DNA of 5,333 bases from a virus (IMGVR_UViG_2548876863_000010:1-5333), one strand, 5' to 3'; shown: positions 1 through 4,697, counted from the stretch's first letter. The notes: a model not told the origin generated them from the letters alone. Translations and numbers: made by a program.

Positions 1-557
1 ATCCTGTTTACCTCTTTCTCAGGGAGTTTAGTCTCCAGGATTCCCGGGGCGGTTCATCGCGCCCTCAACAATGAGTTTTGTGATGCGGTGCCTGGTGCCT
101 CCAGGTGACGTTAACCAGTTAACAATTAACGCCGGATACAGAGAATCCACCCATAACACTGTTTTTGGTTTTAACTGTTCCGCGTGCGCTTAGCCGCATT
201 CACCGCATCACAAAATTCACTTTAAAAAGGGCGGCAGAGCAGTCACGGAGTAAAACTGATACCGCCAAACGTCACCAGAAAATTGATAACAGAGGGCGTT
301 GCAGCGGGGTTGTCACTTAAGCGTATGGTCAACCTGACAACCCGGTGTCCTCAAGGGGAAGGAATAACCCCGCCATACTTACCGCCGCGCCATTTCGCGG
401 AGTGCCACAACCGGAAGCGCACGTTCGAAGAAATCTAACGACAAGCCTTCTAAGGGAAAGAGCTTCGCCGTACGCTTTCGCGTTATGCCCTGACTTTTCA
501 GGGAAATATCCTTTCAGTAAACTGTCAGTACCGGATTCTTATCCGTGTCCGGCGCAC

Positions 558-591: not shown

Positions 592-617
592 AACCCAGAA
601 CCTCAATGGAGGATAAA

Positions 618-827
618 ATGCCAAACAAAAAAAGAAATCCGCTTATTGAAAAACAGATTGAATGCCTGGTAAATCAACTCAGGCAATCAGGGTTATTAAA
701 AACTCATTCAGAGTTGAGGCTCACAGAATCAGCATTCGACGATAAATTAAATAATGTCCTTTATAATGGCATTATTGATTTTAATCGTTCTGTTGGTCGC
801 CGCGGCCCTGCTGGTGTTTCCTTATAA
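618..827 (+). CDS. Hypothetical small protein (69 aa from ATG 618; track ORF starts at 606)
   Basis: ORF 606-827 in the track. ATG 618 is preceded by GGAGG (608-612) at 5-nt spacing; ATG 606 has no SD. AT-rich. The C-terminal 13 aa (RSVGRRGPAGVSL) look like off-frame translation of a hydrophobic segment encoded in the +1 frame (see findings). Convergent with and abutting the 216-aa gene (stop 825-827 vs stop 828-830). Confidence 0.35.
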   Translation: MPNKKRNPLIEKQIECLVNQLRQSGLLKTHSELRLTESAFDDKLNNVLYNGIIDFNRSVGRRGPAGVSL

Positions 828-1478
828 TTACCAGTCAATCCAGAGTGGACCGTGTTCAGCGTAAATATAACTGTACACATCCAGATTATATTTGTGGTCT
901 GTTAAGAACAGGCCGCAAATACATGCCGAAGCTTCCAGTGCAGCGGCTCTGTTACTGAATAACCATGTAGCAACATTCCAGCGTTTTTCTGCATCCCAGT
1001 CTTTCTCAAGGCCTGATACCATGAAGAAACCGTTAGTGTTGCCATCAAATAATTCTGTTTCCAAATTTTTAAGCAATGCCTGATGGACTCTTGCCAGGTA
1101 TTCCGCCGGAATTTCGCCACGAATTCTGATGAGATTGTCATAAACAAACATGTTCCCCGCATATGGCGATTTTTCTTTCTTGTTTTTTAAACCAGCATCA
1201 TGAGCAAACTGATCAATTTCTTCTTCCGTTGGTTTCGTATTGATGTTTTGCGCTGTCGTTTCTGCAATTTTATTTGCCACACTCTCTGAGTCGTGTTTAT
1301 TTATAGACGCACAGAAATACAATCCGGTAAACGCATCGCGCACATTACGAGCCATATTATCAGTGTCTTTTTTCGTTACCGATTCCAATTCAAGTTCGTT
1401 CAGACGATGACGAAGTGTGTGTGCTGCAATCTCCTGGATTGAAGGAGGTAAATCTTTAAATTCCATCGTCAACCTCAT
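828..1478 (-). CDS. Hypothetical protein, 216 aa (212 aa if started at internal ATG 1466..1464); no recognisable domain
   Basis: Longest ORF in an AT-rich block. The internal ATG (codon 5) has GAGG 6 nt upstream. The first ATG overlaps the TGA stop of the upstream 50-aa ORF by 1 nt, suggesting translational coupling. Charged, soluble-looking, non-repetitive sequence with no Walker, HxH or HTH motif that I can see. Confidence 0.7.
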   Translation of the reverse strand: MRLTMEFKDLPPSIQEIAAHTLRHRLNELELESVTKKDTDNMARNVRDAFTGLYFCASINKHDSESVANKIAETTAQNINTKPTEEEIDQFAHDAGLKNKKEKSPYAGNMFVYDNLIRIRGEIPAEYLARVHQALLKNLETELFDGNTNGFFMVSGLEKDWDAEKRWNVATWLFSNRAAALEASACICGLFLTDHKYNLDVYSYIYAEHGPLWIDW

Positions 1479-1630
1479 CAGTCAGTGTTTCTGGCTAACC
1501 AGCGACGCGCGCCAGCTTCAGTTTTAAACGTTTTGCTTTTGGTATACGTCATCGCGGTGAACGTACCGTCCTGGTTGGGGAACACGCCACATACCAGAGA
1601 TTCGTTGTTGCCAAGATTGAGCGTATCCAT
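1478..1630 (-). CDS. Small conserved prophage protein, 50 aa (MDTLNLGNNESLVCGVFPNQDGTFTAMTYTKSKTFKTEAGARRWLARNTD); possibly YdaF-like
   Basis: Not in the ORF track because it is under 60 aa. ATG at 1630..1628 is preceded by GAGG at 6-nt spacing; stop TGA at 1480..1478. It is the first gene behind the PL-like promoter. The resemblance to the ~50-aa YdaF/DUF1391 prophage family is recalled from memory and unverified. Confidence 0.55.
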   Translation of the reverse strand: MDTLNLGNNESLVCGVFPNQDGTFTAMTYTKSKTFKTEAGARRWLARNTD

Positions 1631-1703
1631 GTTGACCTCATTTGCCCTTAACGCCGGGGGGCGGAACTAAGACCTGTCGCACCGTTGTGCTTTGATGGGA
1701 TAT

Positions 1704-1732
1704 ATTGTTCTCTTAAGATGAACATATGTCAA
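1704..1732 (-). promoter_or_regulatory. PL-like early-left promoter with embedded inverted-repeat operator candidate
   Basis: On the minus strand: TTGACA (1732..1727), 17-nt spacer, AACAAT (1709..1704). The spacer contains TGTTC-N9-GAACA (1724..1706). The module is about 80 percent identical to the PR-like module at 2234-2262. Confidence 0.45.
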
Positions 1733-1753
1733 CATTGTGAATGCGCAAGAGGC

Positions 1754-1785
1754 AAAAAAAACCGCCTTCCGGCGGTATTGTTTTG
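1754..1785 (-). terminator. Rho-independent terminator downstream of the repressor gene (hairpin flanked by A-run and T-rich tract, so possibly bidirectional)
   Basis: CCGCC (1762-1766), loop TTCC, GGCGG (1771-1775). On the minus strand the hairpin is followed by 8 T (complement of the A-run 1754-1761), 22 nt past the repressor stop. On the + strand it is followed by TATTGTTTTG. Confidence 0.65.
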
Positions 1786-1797
1786 TAAAATAAAGAA

Positions 1798-2187
1798 TTA
1801 TTTTTGTCGCGTTATTGGGTCAACGTATTCTGAGTAAAATTCGGTCAGTTTTTGAAGGCGCATTTGAAAAGCTGCCAGCATATTTCTACGCTCTACAGGT
1901 GGCAGGTTTCTGTAAACATCAAGCAGGGCTTTCTCATCATCATCAAGCGCCTCTCTGTTTGTATCTTCTTTTCCTGTCAGTAGCCAGGAAAGGGAAACAT
2001 TTGTCGCTTCTGCAATTTTGGCTGCGGAATCTTTACTGATTGTCCCTCTTTTTTTCCAGGCGTTGACTGATGAGCGTCCTACACCAGCGATGCGCGCTAA
2101 ATCTGAACCGCTTAAATGATGCTGTTGCGAGATCGTATCTAACCTTTCTGCCAGCGGGGTGTCGTATTGCTTTTTTCTCATGTCCAT
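1798..2187 (-). CDS. Prophage repressor, DicA-like XRE-family HTH protein without a peptidase S24 domain (129 aa)
   Basis: HTH segment LSGSDLARIAGVGRSSVNAWKKRG...NVSLSWLLTG. The short acidic/helical C-terminal tail resembles the DicA architecture (from memory). Divergent from the cro-like gene. No SD; TATAAT sits 6 nt upstream of the ATG. Confidence 0.85.
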   Translation of the reverse strand: MDMRKKQYDTPLAERLDTISQQHHLSGSDLARIAGVGRSSVNAWKKRGTISKDSAAKIAEATNVSLSWLLTGKEDTNREALDDDEKALLDVYRNLPPVERRNMLAAFQMRLQKLTEFYSEYVDPITRQK

Positions 2188-2193
2188 TTAGCA

Positions 2194-2222
2194 ATTATAA
2201 CCGTTCAGTGAACACTAACAAT
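2194..2222 (-). promoter_or_regulatory. Repressor maintenance promoter (PRM-like), likely producing a leaderless mRNA
   Basis: On the minus strand: TATAAT at 2199..2194, then 6 nt (TGCTAA), then ATG at 2187..2185. A weak -35 candidate TTGTTA lies around 2221..2216. The palindrome GTTCAgTGAAC (2203-2213) sits in the spacer. Confidence 0.45.
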
Positions 2223-2233
2223 TCCTCGTAGTG

Positions 2234-2262
2234 TTGACTTATGTTCTCTTTAAGTGAACAAT
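2234..2262 (+). promoter_or_regulatory. PR-like early-right promoter with embedded inverted-repeat operator candidate
   Basis: TTGACT (2234-2239), 17-nt spacer, AACAAT (2257-2262). The spacer contains TGTTC-N9-GAACA (2242-2260). GGAGG at 2281-2285 precedes the cro-like ATG at 2290. Confidence 0.5.
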
Positions 2263-2289
2263 GTTGTGGCTGATTGAATTGGAGGTTGT

Positions 2290-2565
2290 ATGACAGCATT
2301 GGACAAGGCAATAAAGATTGCTGGTGGTATTCGTCCGCTAGGGCGTGCAATAGGGGCTTGGCCGTCTCAAATACACAAATGGGCAAATGAATACAATGGT
2401 CGAGTGCCGACAGGGGAGCGGGTTCGTCAAATTTATATTGCAACTGGGGTGACTCCTCATGAATTGCGACCAGATTTATATCCGAATCCAACCGACGGGT
2501 TGCCTGCTGGAGATAAGGCTAACACACAAAATACACCGGAGTTGATTCATGAAAATCAAGCATGA
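2290..2565 (+). CDS. Cro-like / YdaS-family HTH DNA-binding protein (91 aa)
   Basis: First gene rightward of the repressor. Strong SD (GGAGG). HTH-like segment ...GGIRPLGRAIGAWPSQIHKWAN.... Overlaps the next gene by 17 nt. Confidence 0.85.
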   Translation: MTALDKAIKIAGGIRPLGRAIGAWPSQIHKWANEYNGRVPTGERVRQIYIATGVTPHELRPDLYPNPTDGLPAGDKANTQNTPELIHENQA

Positions 2566-2974: not shown

Positions 2975-2996
2975 AAGCACGGTGTTCGGGGGTTTT

Positions 2997-3950
2997 ATGA
3001 GCAGCAAGCTTCATGGTCTTGTCTGGGAAGGGTGCGCCTTCACCGGCATGATCTTATCCAGGGTGGCAGTTATGGCCCGTCTTGCAGACTACAGCAATGA
3101 CGAGGGCGTGTCATGGCCTGCTATTGAAACTATCCGGCGTCAGATCGGTGCAAGAAGTGAATCCACCGTTAAATCTGCTATTGCAGAACTGGCGAAAGAG
3201 GGCTGGCTGACGAAGGAAGAGCGTAAGGTCGGTGGGCGTAATGTAAGCAATATCTATCGGCTTAATGTGGAAAAACTTGAAGCAGCTGCAGCGGCGGCGC
3301 GTGAGGCATATAAACCAAAAAGAAAAATTAGCCTGGCAAAAAATGACCCGTCAAATATTGACCCCTCAACGGTTGGCCCGTCAAATTTTGATGGATCAAC
3401 TGTTGATAAAAAACTGCCGATTAGGGGGGCGATGATTGACCCCGATCCGTCAGTATTAAAACCTGAACCGTCAGATAAAAGATCTTCTTGTCCGGACGTT
3501 TCACTGCCGGACGAAAAACAATCATCACCGGTTGAGCGATTTCTGGAGAAACACCCGGATGCGCATACCTGGAATGTCCCGAAGCGACAGTGGGGAACCC
3601 GGGAGGATTTGACGTGTGCACAGTGGATCTGGGGACGGGTTGTTGCGTTGTATGAACAGGCCGCCAGTGATGATGGGGAGGTATCACGCCCCAGAGAGCC
3701 TAACTGGACGACCTGGGCGAATGATGTGCGCATGATGCGTATGCTGGATGGACGTAGTCACCGACAGATTTGTGAAATGTTTGGGCGTGTTCAGCGGGAT
3801 TCGTTCTGGGTAAAAAACATCATGAGTCCGGCAAAACTCCGGGAAAAATGGGATGAACTGGTTATTCGCCTGGGGCGTTCGCCCGCGCAGCGTTGCGTGA
3901 ATCATATTTCTGAACCGGATACCGAAATTCCGCCTGGTTTCAGGGGGTAG
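2997..3950 (+). CDS. Phage replication initiation protein (N-terminal winged-helix DNA-binding domain; YdaU/O-like); alternative GTG start at 2982
   Basis: The track ORF starts at GTG 2982. ATG 2997 is preceded by GGGGG at 5-nt spacing and does not overlap the upstream stop at 2972-2974. N-terminal HTH-like region; central DPS/GPS repeat linker encoded by 15-bp tandem repeats (iterons). Immediately followed by the DnaC-like gene. Confidence 0.85.
   Translation: MSSKLHGLVWEGCAFTGMILSRVAVMARLADYSNDEGVSWPAIETIRRQIGARSESTVKSAIAELAKEGWLTKEERKVGGRNVSNIYRLNVEKLEAAAAAAREAYKPKRKISLAKNDPSNIDPSTVGPSNFDGSTVDKKLPIRGAMIDPDPSVLKPEPSDKRSSCPDVSLPDEKQSSPVERFLEKHPDAHTWNVPKRQWGTREDLTCAQWIWGRVVALYEQAASDDGEVSRPREPNWTTWANDVRMMRMLDGRSHRQICEMFGRVQRDSFWVKNIMSPAKLREKWDELVIRLGRSPAQRCVNHISEPDTEIPPGFRG
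3344..3403. repeat. Four tandem 15-bp iteron-like direct repeats inside the replication gene (candidate phage origin)
   Basis: TGACCCGTCAAATAT / TGACCCCTCAACGGT / TGGCCCGTCAAATTT / TGATGGATCAACTGT. Degenerate CCGTCAG-containing copies follow at about 3437-3475. An A-rich tract precedes (3311-3343) and a short one follows (3404-3412). Confidence 0.6.
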
Positions 3951-3956
3951 CGCACC

Positions 3957-4697
3957 ATGAAAAACATTACGTCAGGTGGTGTTCTGGCAAGAGTCAGCAG
4001 ATTTGTGCCGCAGGATGCAATCCCTCCGTACCGTACGGTGGCGGAGTGGCGGGAATGGCAGCTTGCTGAAGGGCGTAAGCGAAGCGAGGAGGTTAATCGT
4101 CTGAATCATCAGACGCGGGTTGAAAAAATCATTAACCGCTCCGGTATCCAGCCGCTTCACCGGAAGTGTACGTTCGGTAACTACCGGGTGCAGAACGATG
4201 GTCAGCGCCATGCCCTGAGTCAGGCGAAATCCATTGCGGCAGAGCTGGAAGGCGGCTGTACGAATTTTGTTTTCAGTGGCAGGCCTGGCACAGGAAAAAA
4301 CCACCTGGCGGCGGCTATTGGCAACCACCTTCTGGCGAAAGGTCGCAGTGTGATTGTGATAACAGTGGCGGATGTGATGCTGGCGTTACATGGCAGCTAC
4401 GACAACAAAAACTCGGGCGAAAAATTTTTGCAGGGATTGTGTGGCGTTGACCTGCTGGTACTGGATGAAATTGGCATGCAACGGGATACGCGTAATGAGC
4501 AGGTCACGCTGAATCAGATTGTTGACCGCAGAACGGCATCGTTACTCAGTGTGGGGATGCTGACAAATCTTAACCATGCAGCGATGAATACACTTCTCGG
4601 CGAGCGGGTGATGGACCGCATGTCCATGAACGGTGGTCGCTGGGTGACGTTTAACTGGGAGAGCTGGCGTCCGAACGTCAGCCAGCACAGGAACTGA
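3957..4697 (+). CDS. DnaC-like replicative helicase loader (AAA+ ATPase, IstB/DnaC family), prophage paralog, 246 aa
   Basis: Walker [16 protein letters not shown] and Walker B LLVLDEIG. Near-collinear resemblance to E. coli DnaC along its length ([54 protein letters not shown]), from memory. Confidence 0.95.

Follow-up and report, generated by a model that had tools for sequence, protein, structure and literature searches.

A predicted lambda-style immunity switch with shared 19-bp operators in a dicBF-bearing Escherichia coli prophage

The DNA analyzed here (the window) is a stretch of 5,333 nt from the viral record IMGVR_UViG_2548876863_000010. Its closest complete-genome match is a prophage of an E. 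coli O157:H7 strain, with 98.7% identity across 99% of the length. In the matching genome this prophage adjoins ompW and an integrase, an excisionase, an exonuclease and dicB are found nearby, with dicB lying just outside the window start. To judge from the sequence, the region from 1700 to 2265 is quite probably the immunity switch of a lambdoid E. coli prophage of the dicBF-bearing, YdaS/YdaT type. The following genes and features can be distinguished:

229-280, minus strand: DicF sRNA, distal in the PL operon (Rfam RF00039, 76.7 bits against a gathering score of 48)
828-1478, minus strand: ORF of 216 aa with no Pfam family
1478-1630, minus strand: DUF1391-family gene, ydfA-like, first in the PL operon (Pfam PF07151, E = 3.6e-30)
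1732..1704, minus strand: PL-like promoter (dicBp analogue), TTGACA-TATGTTCATCTTAAGAG-AACAAT, 17-nt spacer (promoter scan, 10/12 matches)
1706..1724: predicted OL operator inside the PL spacer, 19-bp 7-5-7 dyad TGTTCTC-TTAAG-ATGAACA (plus strand)
1737..1742, minus strand: possible auxiliary half-site ATTCA(C), 4 nt upstream of the PL -35 (close-variant conservation)
1750..1776, minus strand: intrinsic terminator 3' of the repressor gene and before PL, hairpin 1761-1776 plus T-run (terminator scan)
1798-2187, minus strand: repressor gene, 129 aa, N-terminal HTH plus C-terminal two-helix hook (Pfam Phage_CI_repr/HTH_3; AlphaFold)
2221..2194, minus strand: PRM-like repressor promoter, TTGTTA, 16-nt spacer, TATAAT (promoter scan)
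2196..2214: predicted weak third operator (OR3-like), TGTTCAC-TGAAC-GGTTATA (minus strand; conservation and register)
2234-2262, plus strand: PR-like promoter, TTGACT-TATGTTCTCTTTAAGTG-AACAAT, 17-nt spacer (promoter scan)
2242..2260: predicted OR1 operator inside the PR spacer, TGTTCTC-TTTAA-GTGAACA, symmetric pairs 8/9
2290-2565, plus strand: Cro-like YdaS-family gene, first in the PR operon (Pfam PF15943)
2542-2559: predicted YdaT operator OM, TTGATTCATGAAAATCAA, at the ydaS/ydaT junction and without mismatch to TTGATT-N6-AATCAA
2549-2974, plus strand: YdaT gene, CII analogue (Pfam PF06254; about 91% identity to 8bt1, the crystallised CP-933P YdaT)
2982-3950, plus strand: O-like replication protein (ORF and Pfam)
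3957-4697, plus strand: DnaC-like replication protein (ORF and Pfam)

This layout is typical of a lambdoid immunity region: a leftward HTH repressor gene, the divergent YdaS and then YdaT genes, a terminator, and a second leftward promoter for the genes from DUF1391 to DicF and DicB. The repressor and YdaS genes diverge from a gap of 102 bp. Only one of the 16 stem positions of the terminator varies among close variants, and the terminator is kept in all relatives. The immunity region (1640-2300) was found in 82 of 5426 complete E. coli genomes (about 1.5%), mostly of O157:H7 and other STEC. A DNA search of the same region against 50,697 phage records returned no matches, and a protein search of phage records gave only relatives of at most 59% identity; the immunity would thus be common to no characterised phage.

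A consensus promoter scan of 1400-2400 yielded three sites only, namely PL, PR and the PRM-like promoter. It had originally been predicted that PL and PR share one promoter/operator module. The coordinates, hexamers and common geometry of the two promoters were all borne out on the sequence, as were the 13 of 17 identical spacer bases and the TGTTC-N9-GAACA dyad between the -35 and -10 of each. The -10 hexamer of both, AACAAT, follows the consensus at only 4/6 positions. No inverted repeat of the region is longer than this module (31 nt, 84% complementary, 1704-1734 versus 2232-2262), whose 26/31 matches also make it the best inverted match of the entire window, the maximum in 40 first-order Markov simulations being 25. 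Allowing one mismatch, the dyad occurs in the window at 1706-1724 and 2242-2260 only (expected count 0.27), and a count of two is reached in 2/200 shuffles. A further copy, at the same tolerance, is absent from 17 kb of the same prophage. Each early promoter therein has one full dyad, tandem triplets are absent, and the distance from OL to OR amounts to 536 bp. Another inverted repeat near PR, AGTGAACACTA / TAGTGTTGACT (2207-2217 / 2229-2239), was considered and discarded: positions 2229-2232 vary in close variants, and what remains is the PR -35 only.

Judged within the window alone, a chance origin of the dyads is unlikely, though not overwhelmingly excluded. These modest statistics would also suit an explanation in which PL and PR are two copies of one strong promoter, arisen by duplication or gene conversion, with the symmetry being incidental. 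The decisive support for reading the dyads as operators appears to be comparative, and it makes this explanation very improbable indeed. Among close variants the half-sites in the spacer are invariant and the spacer centres variable, the symmetry is kept in all relatives despite a changed sequence, and the 7-5-7 unit recurs in the same register in the unrelated PRM promoter.

The close variants were compared in an alignment of six sequences, the window and five E. coli variants that are 88-94% identical, in which the variable columns were counted. Over the four 5-bp half-sites only 1/20 positions is variable, versus 10/18 in the two 9-bp dyad centres (Fisher p = 0.0009). For OL this corresponds to 0/10 half-site positions and 6/9 of the N9 centre, and for OR1 to 1/10 and 4/9. 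In the same six sequences the -35 and -10 hexamers are almost invariant (a single change, in the PL -35), the repressor promoter stretch 2190-2223 is invariant, and 68/390 positions of the repressor coding sequence vary. The conservation of the promoter-distal half-site is the most informative, because spacer DNA between -35 and -10 is not normally constrained by promoter function. The check that had been proposed together with the original prediction, an alignment of related prophages, thus gave half-sites that are kept and centres that are free, with a layout that is also kept in 13 distant relatives.

A protein search gave graded homologues of the repressor, from 100% to about 55% identity, in Escherichia, Salmonella, Klebsiella, Enterobacter, Cronobacter and others. 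A profile scan of genome contigs with the repressor alignment provided 18 loci, and intermediate relatives were collected individually. In total, 13 informative distant loci were compared, whose repressors are 49-82% identical to that of the window. L029, in which a PR module is present but the 260 bp beyond the repressor stop contain no recognisable PL, was omitted from the PR/PL comparison; L010, with spacers of 18 and 16 nt, was tabulated and excluded from PR/PL scoring. In 13/13 relatives both PR and PL consist of a -35 (TTGACA), 2 nt and a 19-bp 7-5-7 dyad of which the last 4 nt are the first 4 of the -10. The repressor promoter of the relatives contains a 7-5-7 unit in the same register as PR and PL, and the distance from its -10 to the ATG is 6 nt, or 7 nt in two loci. 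Four operator classes were found:

TGTTC class, TGTTC(A/T)(C/T) ... (G/A)(T/A)GAACA: window, L026, L008, L038, L034
GTTAGC class, TGTTAGC ... GCTAACA-like: L035, L027, L028, L017
GTTGA class, GTTGA/GTTGC ... TCAAC: L036, L030, L037
TTAGC class, TTAGC ... GCTCA: L031, L007

Within one locus, PR and PL have on average 12.1 of the 14 outer bases in common, compared to 8.0 between classes. When one representative per class is taken, the true PR-PL pairing has the top score among all 24 permutations. The half-site class tracks the repressor clade across the window and the 13 relatives. Because the operator classes coincide with the clades, the independent co-variation events are few, about four. 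Joint co-variation of regulator and operator is the expected behaviour of an immunity cassette.

The half-site class tracks the clade of the Cro-like YdaS, HTH included, as tightly as that of the repressor, so that the co-variation fits the repressor, YdaS or both as reader of the dyad. It may thus be asked whether the dyads are read mainly or only by YdaS, with the 129-aa repressor recognising something else. Besides the tracking by the YdaS HTH region, this would be in line with CP-933P, where the YdaS footprint covers both promoters (PMC8630535). We nevertheless regard it as improbable. DicA, itself a repressor, binds the closely similar dyad TGTTAG-N6-CTAACA (PMC3441716). A repeat search of the region gave no other repeated motif common to PL, PR and PRM, and the repressor is required for PL repression in the prophage state. 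To our knowledge, repressor and Cro moreover share operators in every characterised lambdoid switch.

In the mechanism proposed here, a dimer of the 129-aa HTH repressor would recognise a 19-bp 7-5-7 operator with the consensus TGTTC(A/T)C-N5-G(A/T)GAACA. PR and PL would each contain one strong copy in the spacer that separates -35 and -10, at 2242-2260 and 1706-1724, respectively. The promoter-proximal half-site GAACA|AT would double as the -10 AACAAT. As half-site and -10 overlap, the bound repressor is proposed to exclude RNA polymerase from both early operons, thereby silencing the YdaS-YdaT-replication genes in rightward direction and the DUF1391...DicF-DicB genes in leftward direction. 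The third copy (2196-2214) in the repressor's own promoter would only be filled at high repressor concentration, leading to negative autoregulation; the occupancy of this site is conjectural. These sites are probably also bound by the Cro-like YdaS, in keeping with Cro of lambda and YdaS of CP-933P. The sequence elements, the pattern of their conservation and their co-variation with the regulators are observed here; from these we infer which protein binds, the direction of the regulation, the transcription starts and, as discussed further on, induction by an antirepressor. The model as a whole, with one repressor, shared 19-bp operators at PR and PL and a weak copy at PRM, is considered likely. 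The half-site conservation, the co-variation of PR and PL with the clade and the gene layout lend computational support to the original notion of a lambda-style switch in which one repressor governs both early operons.

The repressor promoter is built differently. At PR and PL a consensus -35 is combined with a weak -10 (AACAAT) and a strong operator, whereas at PRM the -35 is weak, the -10 (TATAAT) follows the consensus and the operator is half present. The third site consists of the consensus half-site GTGAACA (2208-2214, plus strand), N5 and a weak half-site (2196-2202) that is fused to the -10. Given the consensus TATAAT as PRM -10, the third copy would possess one good half-site only. The unit TGTTCAC-N5-GGTTATA is kept in 5/5 TGTTC-class loci, its N5 being variable and its register to the -10 being that of PR and PL. 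On the repressor strand the four other loci of this class read TGTTCAC-TGAGA/TGCGA/TACGA/TGAGT-GGTTATA|AT. Other classes carry a nearly full dyad at this position, e.g., TGTTAGC-CAGTG-GCTTACA|AT in L007. The PRM -10 ends 6 nt before the repressor ATG (2187), by which the repressor mRNA is probably leaderless. The same was reported for paaR2 of CP-933P and for the lambda repressor (PMC8630535), giving a further likeness to these switches.

It had also been predicted that extra half-sites lie in this promoter, forming GTTCAGTGAAC at 2203-2213. The palindrome is present, and perfect in the window; as a conserved unit it does not hold, as its TGAAC arm is lost in the four other TGTTC-class relatives. 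The repressor-proximal operator might still be this 11-bp palindrome (GTTCAgTGAAC), or else CGTTC-N9-TAACA at 2202-2220, rather than the unit at 2196-2214. The six E. coli variants cannot discriminate the palindrome from the 19-bp unit, with 2190-2223 being fully invariant, and relatives of the TTAGC and GTTAGC classes have a palindrome, AGCC-N3-GGCT, at the place of GTTCAgTGAAC. Yet this palindrome is the inner part of a full 7-5-7 operator whose position matches 2196-2214, and in the four other TGTTC loci the right arm of GTTCAgTGAAC is replaced by the N5 sequences given above. The CGTTC-N9-TAACA candidate was rejected, since neither its left half nor the partner at the right spacing is kept in L026, L008, L038 and L034. 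An operator other than the 2196-2214 unit is hence rather unlikely, and this unit is retained as the predicted third site.

The AlphaFold model of the 129-aa repressor (pLDDT 82) has a five-helix HTH domain that is followed by a two-helix C-terminal hook. Its N-terminal domain superposes on the DNA-binding domains of 434 repressor, 434 Cro and P22 c2 at 1.7-2.7 A over about 63 residues with 19-30% identity. The 434 and P22 c2 domains bind dyads as dimers, in which the outer bases are contacted and the centres are not. This matches the conservation pattern described here; their operators, of 14 and 18 bp, have another sequence and another length. Over its full length, the model finds its best PDB match in SinR of Bacillus subtilis (1b0n_A, E = 5.7e-4; TM-score about 0.4 to 0.5; 23% identity), which also has an HTH domain and then a two-helix hook, although only the fold is alike. 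SinR does not belong to a phage; it oligomerises through its hook, which is also the part that the antagonist SinI captures. A PDB sequence search gave no detectable match of the repressor to any PaaR2 entry, perhaps as none has been deposited.

In a BLASTP comparison the repressor shares 26% identity with DicA over 110 residues (pairwise E = 5e-7), and the aligned part extends to the C-terminal LLxxYxxLP...helix. The kinship, as seen in this alignment, is distant homology, and the label 'DicA-like' given to the protein originally is acceptable with the C-terminal part included. RacR aligns to the repressor over 28 HTH residues only. Across the immunity classes the hook is more conserved than the HTH domain. 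No S24 peptidase domain was found in the repressor, for which Pfam reports HTH families only, so that induction probably proceeds via an antirepressor and not by RecA-stimulated cleavage as for cI. The conserved C-terminal hook would be the target of such an antirepressor. Induction by antirepressor was shown for DicA with Rem and for the Gifsy repressors (PMC10448788).

The left arm of the window resembles that of Qin. Both have a short, non-cleavable and homologous HTH repressor (DicA in Qin), and both have the order of repressor gene, terminator, leftward promoter and DUF1391-first operon with DicF and DicB (ydfA-ydfB-ydfC-dicF-dicB in Qin). In both, the promoter spacer also contains a TGTT...AACA-type operator, dicBp of Qin in the K-12 sequence being TTGACC-GA-TGTTAGTCATGGCTAATC. 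DicA binds the operator Oc, TTGTTAGTCATAACTAACAA, in vivo (PMC3441716); it acts as a repressor of dicC and dicBp and as an activator of its own gene (PMC3441716; PMC10448788). The Qin operator TGTTAGT-N4-ACTAACA, however, comprises 18 bp, compared to the 19 bp of TGTTC(W)C-N5-G(W)GAACA here, and the rightward genes are dicC/ydfX in Qin and of the YdaS/YdaT type here. Oc itself is not present in the region. With a half-site core of TGTTC instead of TGTTAG and a dyad that is 1 bp longer, the immunity specificity would be different from that of DicA. The PL-like promoter of Rac has TTAGGC...GCCTAA dyads in and beside it.

The right arm is closer to CP-933P (Sp12, O157:H7), which has a YdaS-YdaT rightward operon with a YdaT of about 91% identity and an identical OM site at the same junction. 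In CP-933P, YdaT has been footprinted on TTGATT-N6-AATCAA at this junction (PMC9986795). The footprints of PaaR2 and YdaS in CP-933P extend over PR and PRM, and the two proteins also repress a PL whose -35 and -10 are those of PR (PMC8630535). The sharing of these hexamers between PL and PR is found here as well, and so is a repressor promoter geometry that implies a leaderless mRNA. In contrast to CP-933P, where the paaA2-parE2 toxin-antitoxin genes are located 3' of the repressor gene, no such genes occur here. CP-933P also has four 18-bp operator repeats (consensus GTTTAGTAA), versus one strong 19-bp dyad per early promoter in the window.

With lambda, the region has in common the divergent repressor and cro genes, operators that overlap PR, PL and PRM, and a weaker PRM site that would permit negative autoregulation. 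Lambda, however, has the tandem triplets OR1-3 and OL1-3 and a cI with an S24 autocleavage domain, whereas here single operators occupy the promoter spacers and keep a constant register to the -10, at the OL-OR distance given above, and the repressor is devoid of the S24 domain.

Overall, the window is a mosaic as far as these relationships go: its left arm resembles that of Qin, its YdaT that of CP-933P, and its repressor/Cro/operator cassette is its own. The cassette represents, on present comparison, an immunity specificity that is undescribed in the phage records and literature searched, within the known architecture of Qin, Rac and CP-933P. A literature search for the exact operator strings gave irrelevant primer matches only. 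The current understanding of lambdoid switches is left unchanged, and the region is an ordinary example of a well-known switch type. It controls, in the proposed mechanism, a prophage that bears the cell-division inhibitors DicF and DicB, and its operators would show how toxic genes of the dicBF type stay silent. Knowledge of the operators may further serve for the prediction of heteroimmune co-resident prophages, and the compact repressor/operator pair, with several natural specificity variants, could be used in synthetic circuits.

The residue after the invariant Trp44 of the repressor is K/R in 5/5 repressors of the TGTTC class, and H, Y or F in all others. The TGTTC versus GTTAGC specificity may be set by very few residues. 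More tentatively, the repressor family might be a natural series of orthogonal immunity specificities on one rigid scaffold, with -10-fused half-sites in fixed register, an idea that we hold to be possible and somewhat doubtful. As part of it, the fusion of a half-site to the -10 at all three promoters would entail a trade-off between operator strength and -10 strength, with GAACA|AT at PR and PL versus TATA|AT at PRM. If such a series indeed exists, single substitutions could re-target the switch.

Two minor points concern the surroundings of PL. RNA folding of the conserved PL leader gave a stability that is no better than that of shuffles (z = 0.69). Upstream of the promoter, the assignment of an auxiliary half-site at 1737..1742 is tentative. 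The ATTCA near the PL -35 is invariant amid variable neighbours in the close variants, and at the equivalent position the other immunity classes have the class-matching ATAGC/TTAGC and TAGAC.

The predicted repressor mRNA of this prophage resembles two characterised transcripts. In the window (2187-2199, minus strand) and in 12 related loci, only 6 nt (7 nt in two loci) separate the end of the -10 element from the ATG of the repressor gene. This short distance, found in every relative, implies that the repressor mRNA would be leaderless across the whole family, as judged from the sequences. The same arrangement is known experimentally for the mRNA of paaR2, the repressor gene of the O157:H7 prophage CP-933P, and for the lambda cI mRNA (PMC8630535, where the lambda result is restated).

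Within the repressor itself, Trp44 of the recognition helix is invariant and is directly followed by residue 45 (window ~2053-2055, minus strand). The latter is Lys or Arg in all five repressors of the TGTTC class (the immunity classes are distinguished by their operator half-sites) and His, Tyr or Phe in all others; by this comparison of sequences, residue 45 is a candidate specificity determinant. The C-terminal part of the protein is formed by the following element:

1798-1941, minus strand: C-terminal two-helix hook of the repressor (residues ~83-129), LPPxERRNMLAAFQMRLQxL..FY

Across the immunity classes, the hook is far more conserved than the DNA-binding domain, and SinR is the best full-length fold match of the window repressor. 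Taken together, the conservation and the fold match therefore suggest a shared oligomerisation surface or an antirepressor target.

In the PR operon, the junction of ydaS and ydaT (2542-2559) contains a perfect inverted repeat, TTGATTCATGAAAATCAA. The footprinted YdaT operator OM of CP-933P has the same form (PMC9986795), and the CP-933P YdaT structure (PDB 8bt1) shares ~91% identity with the window YdaT protein.

On the PL side, an ATTCA(C) motif is located just upstream of the -35 element (1737-1742, minus strand). The motif is invariant, its neighbours are variable, and class-matching motifs (ATAGC/TTAGC, TAGAC) occupy the equivalent position in other immunity classes. A possible role for the ATTCA(C) motif is that of an auxiliary OL2 half-site. 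In L027, a very common Salmonella locus of the GTTAGC class (>1000 contigs), the PL operator (TATTCGC-CAATG-ACAAATA) resembles the PR operator (TGTTAGT-TGCAA-GCTAACA) much more poorly than in the other loci, and the control of PL in this prophage may be weak or of a different kind.

Downstream of PL, two further elements are found:

1640-1697, minus strand: PL leader, ...CATCAAAGCACAACGGTGCGACAGG...GTTCCGCC-loop-GGCGTTAAGGG...
229-280, minus strand: DicF sRNA gene within the PL operon (Rfam, 76.7 bits)

The PL leader is kept in every immunity class despite the differing operators (window and L026-L038, including Qin, L032, and Rac, L033). Its predicted RNA fold is not more stable than that of shuffled sequences (z = 0.69). 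The leader might be a nut-like or a translational element.

A Pfam search yielded no family for either of two ORFs, one of 216 aa (828-1478, minus strand) and one of 73 aa (606-827, plus strand). Several variants that share the immunity region have ydfB in place of these ORFs, and the PL operon is thus mosaic. A weak STnc100-like match, scoring below the gathering score, is also present at 77-217 (minus strand).
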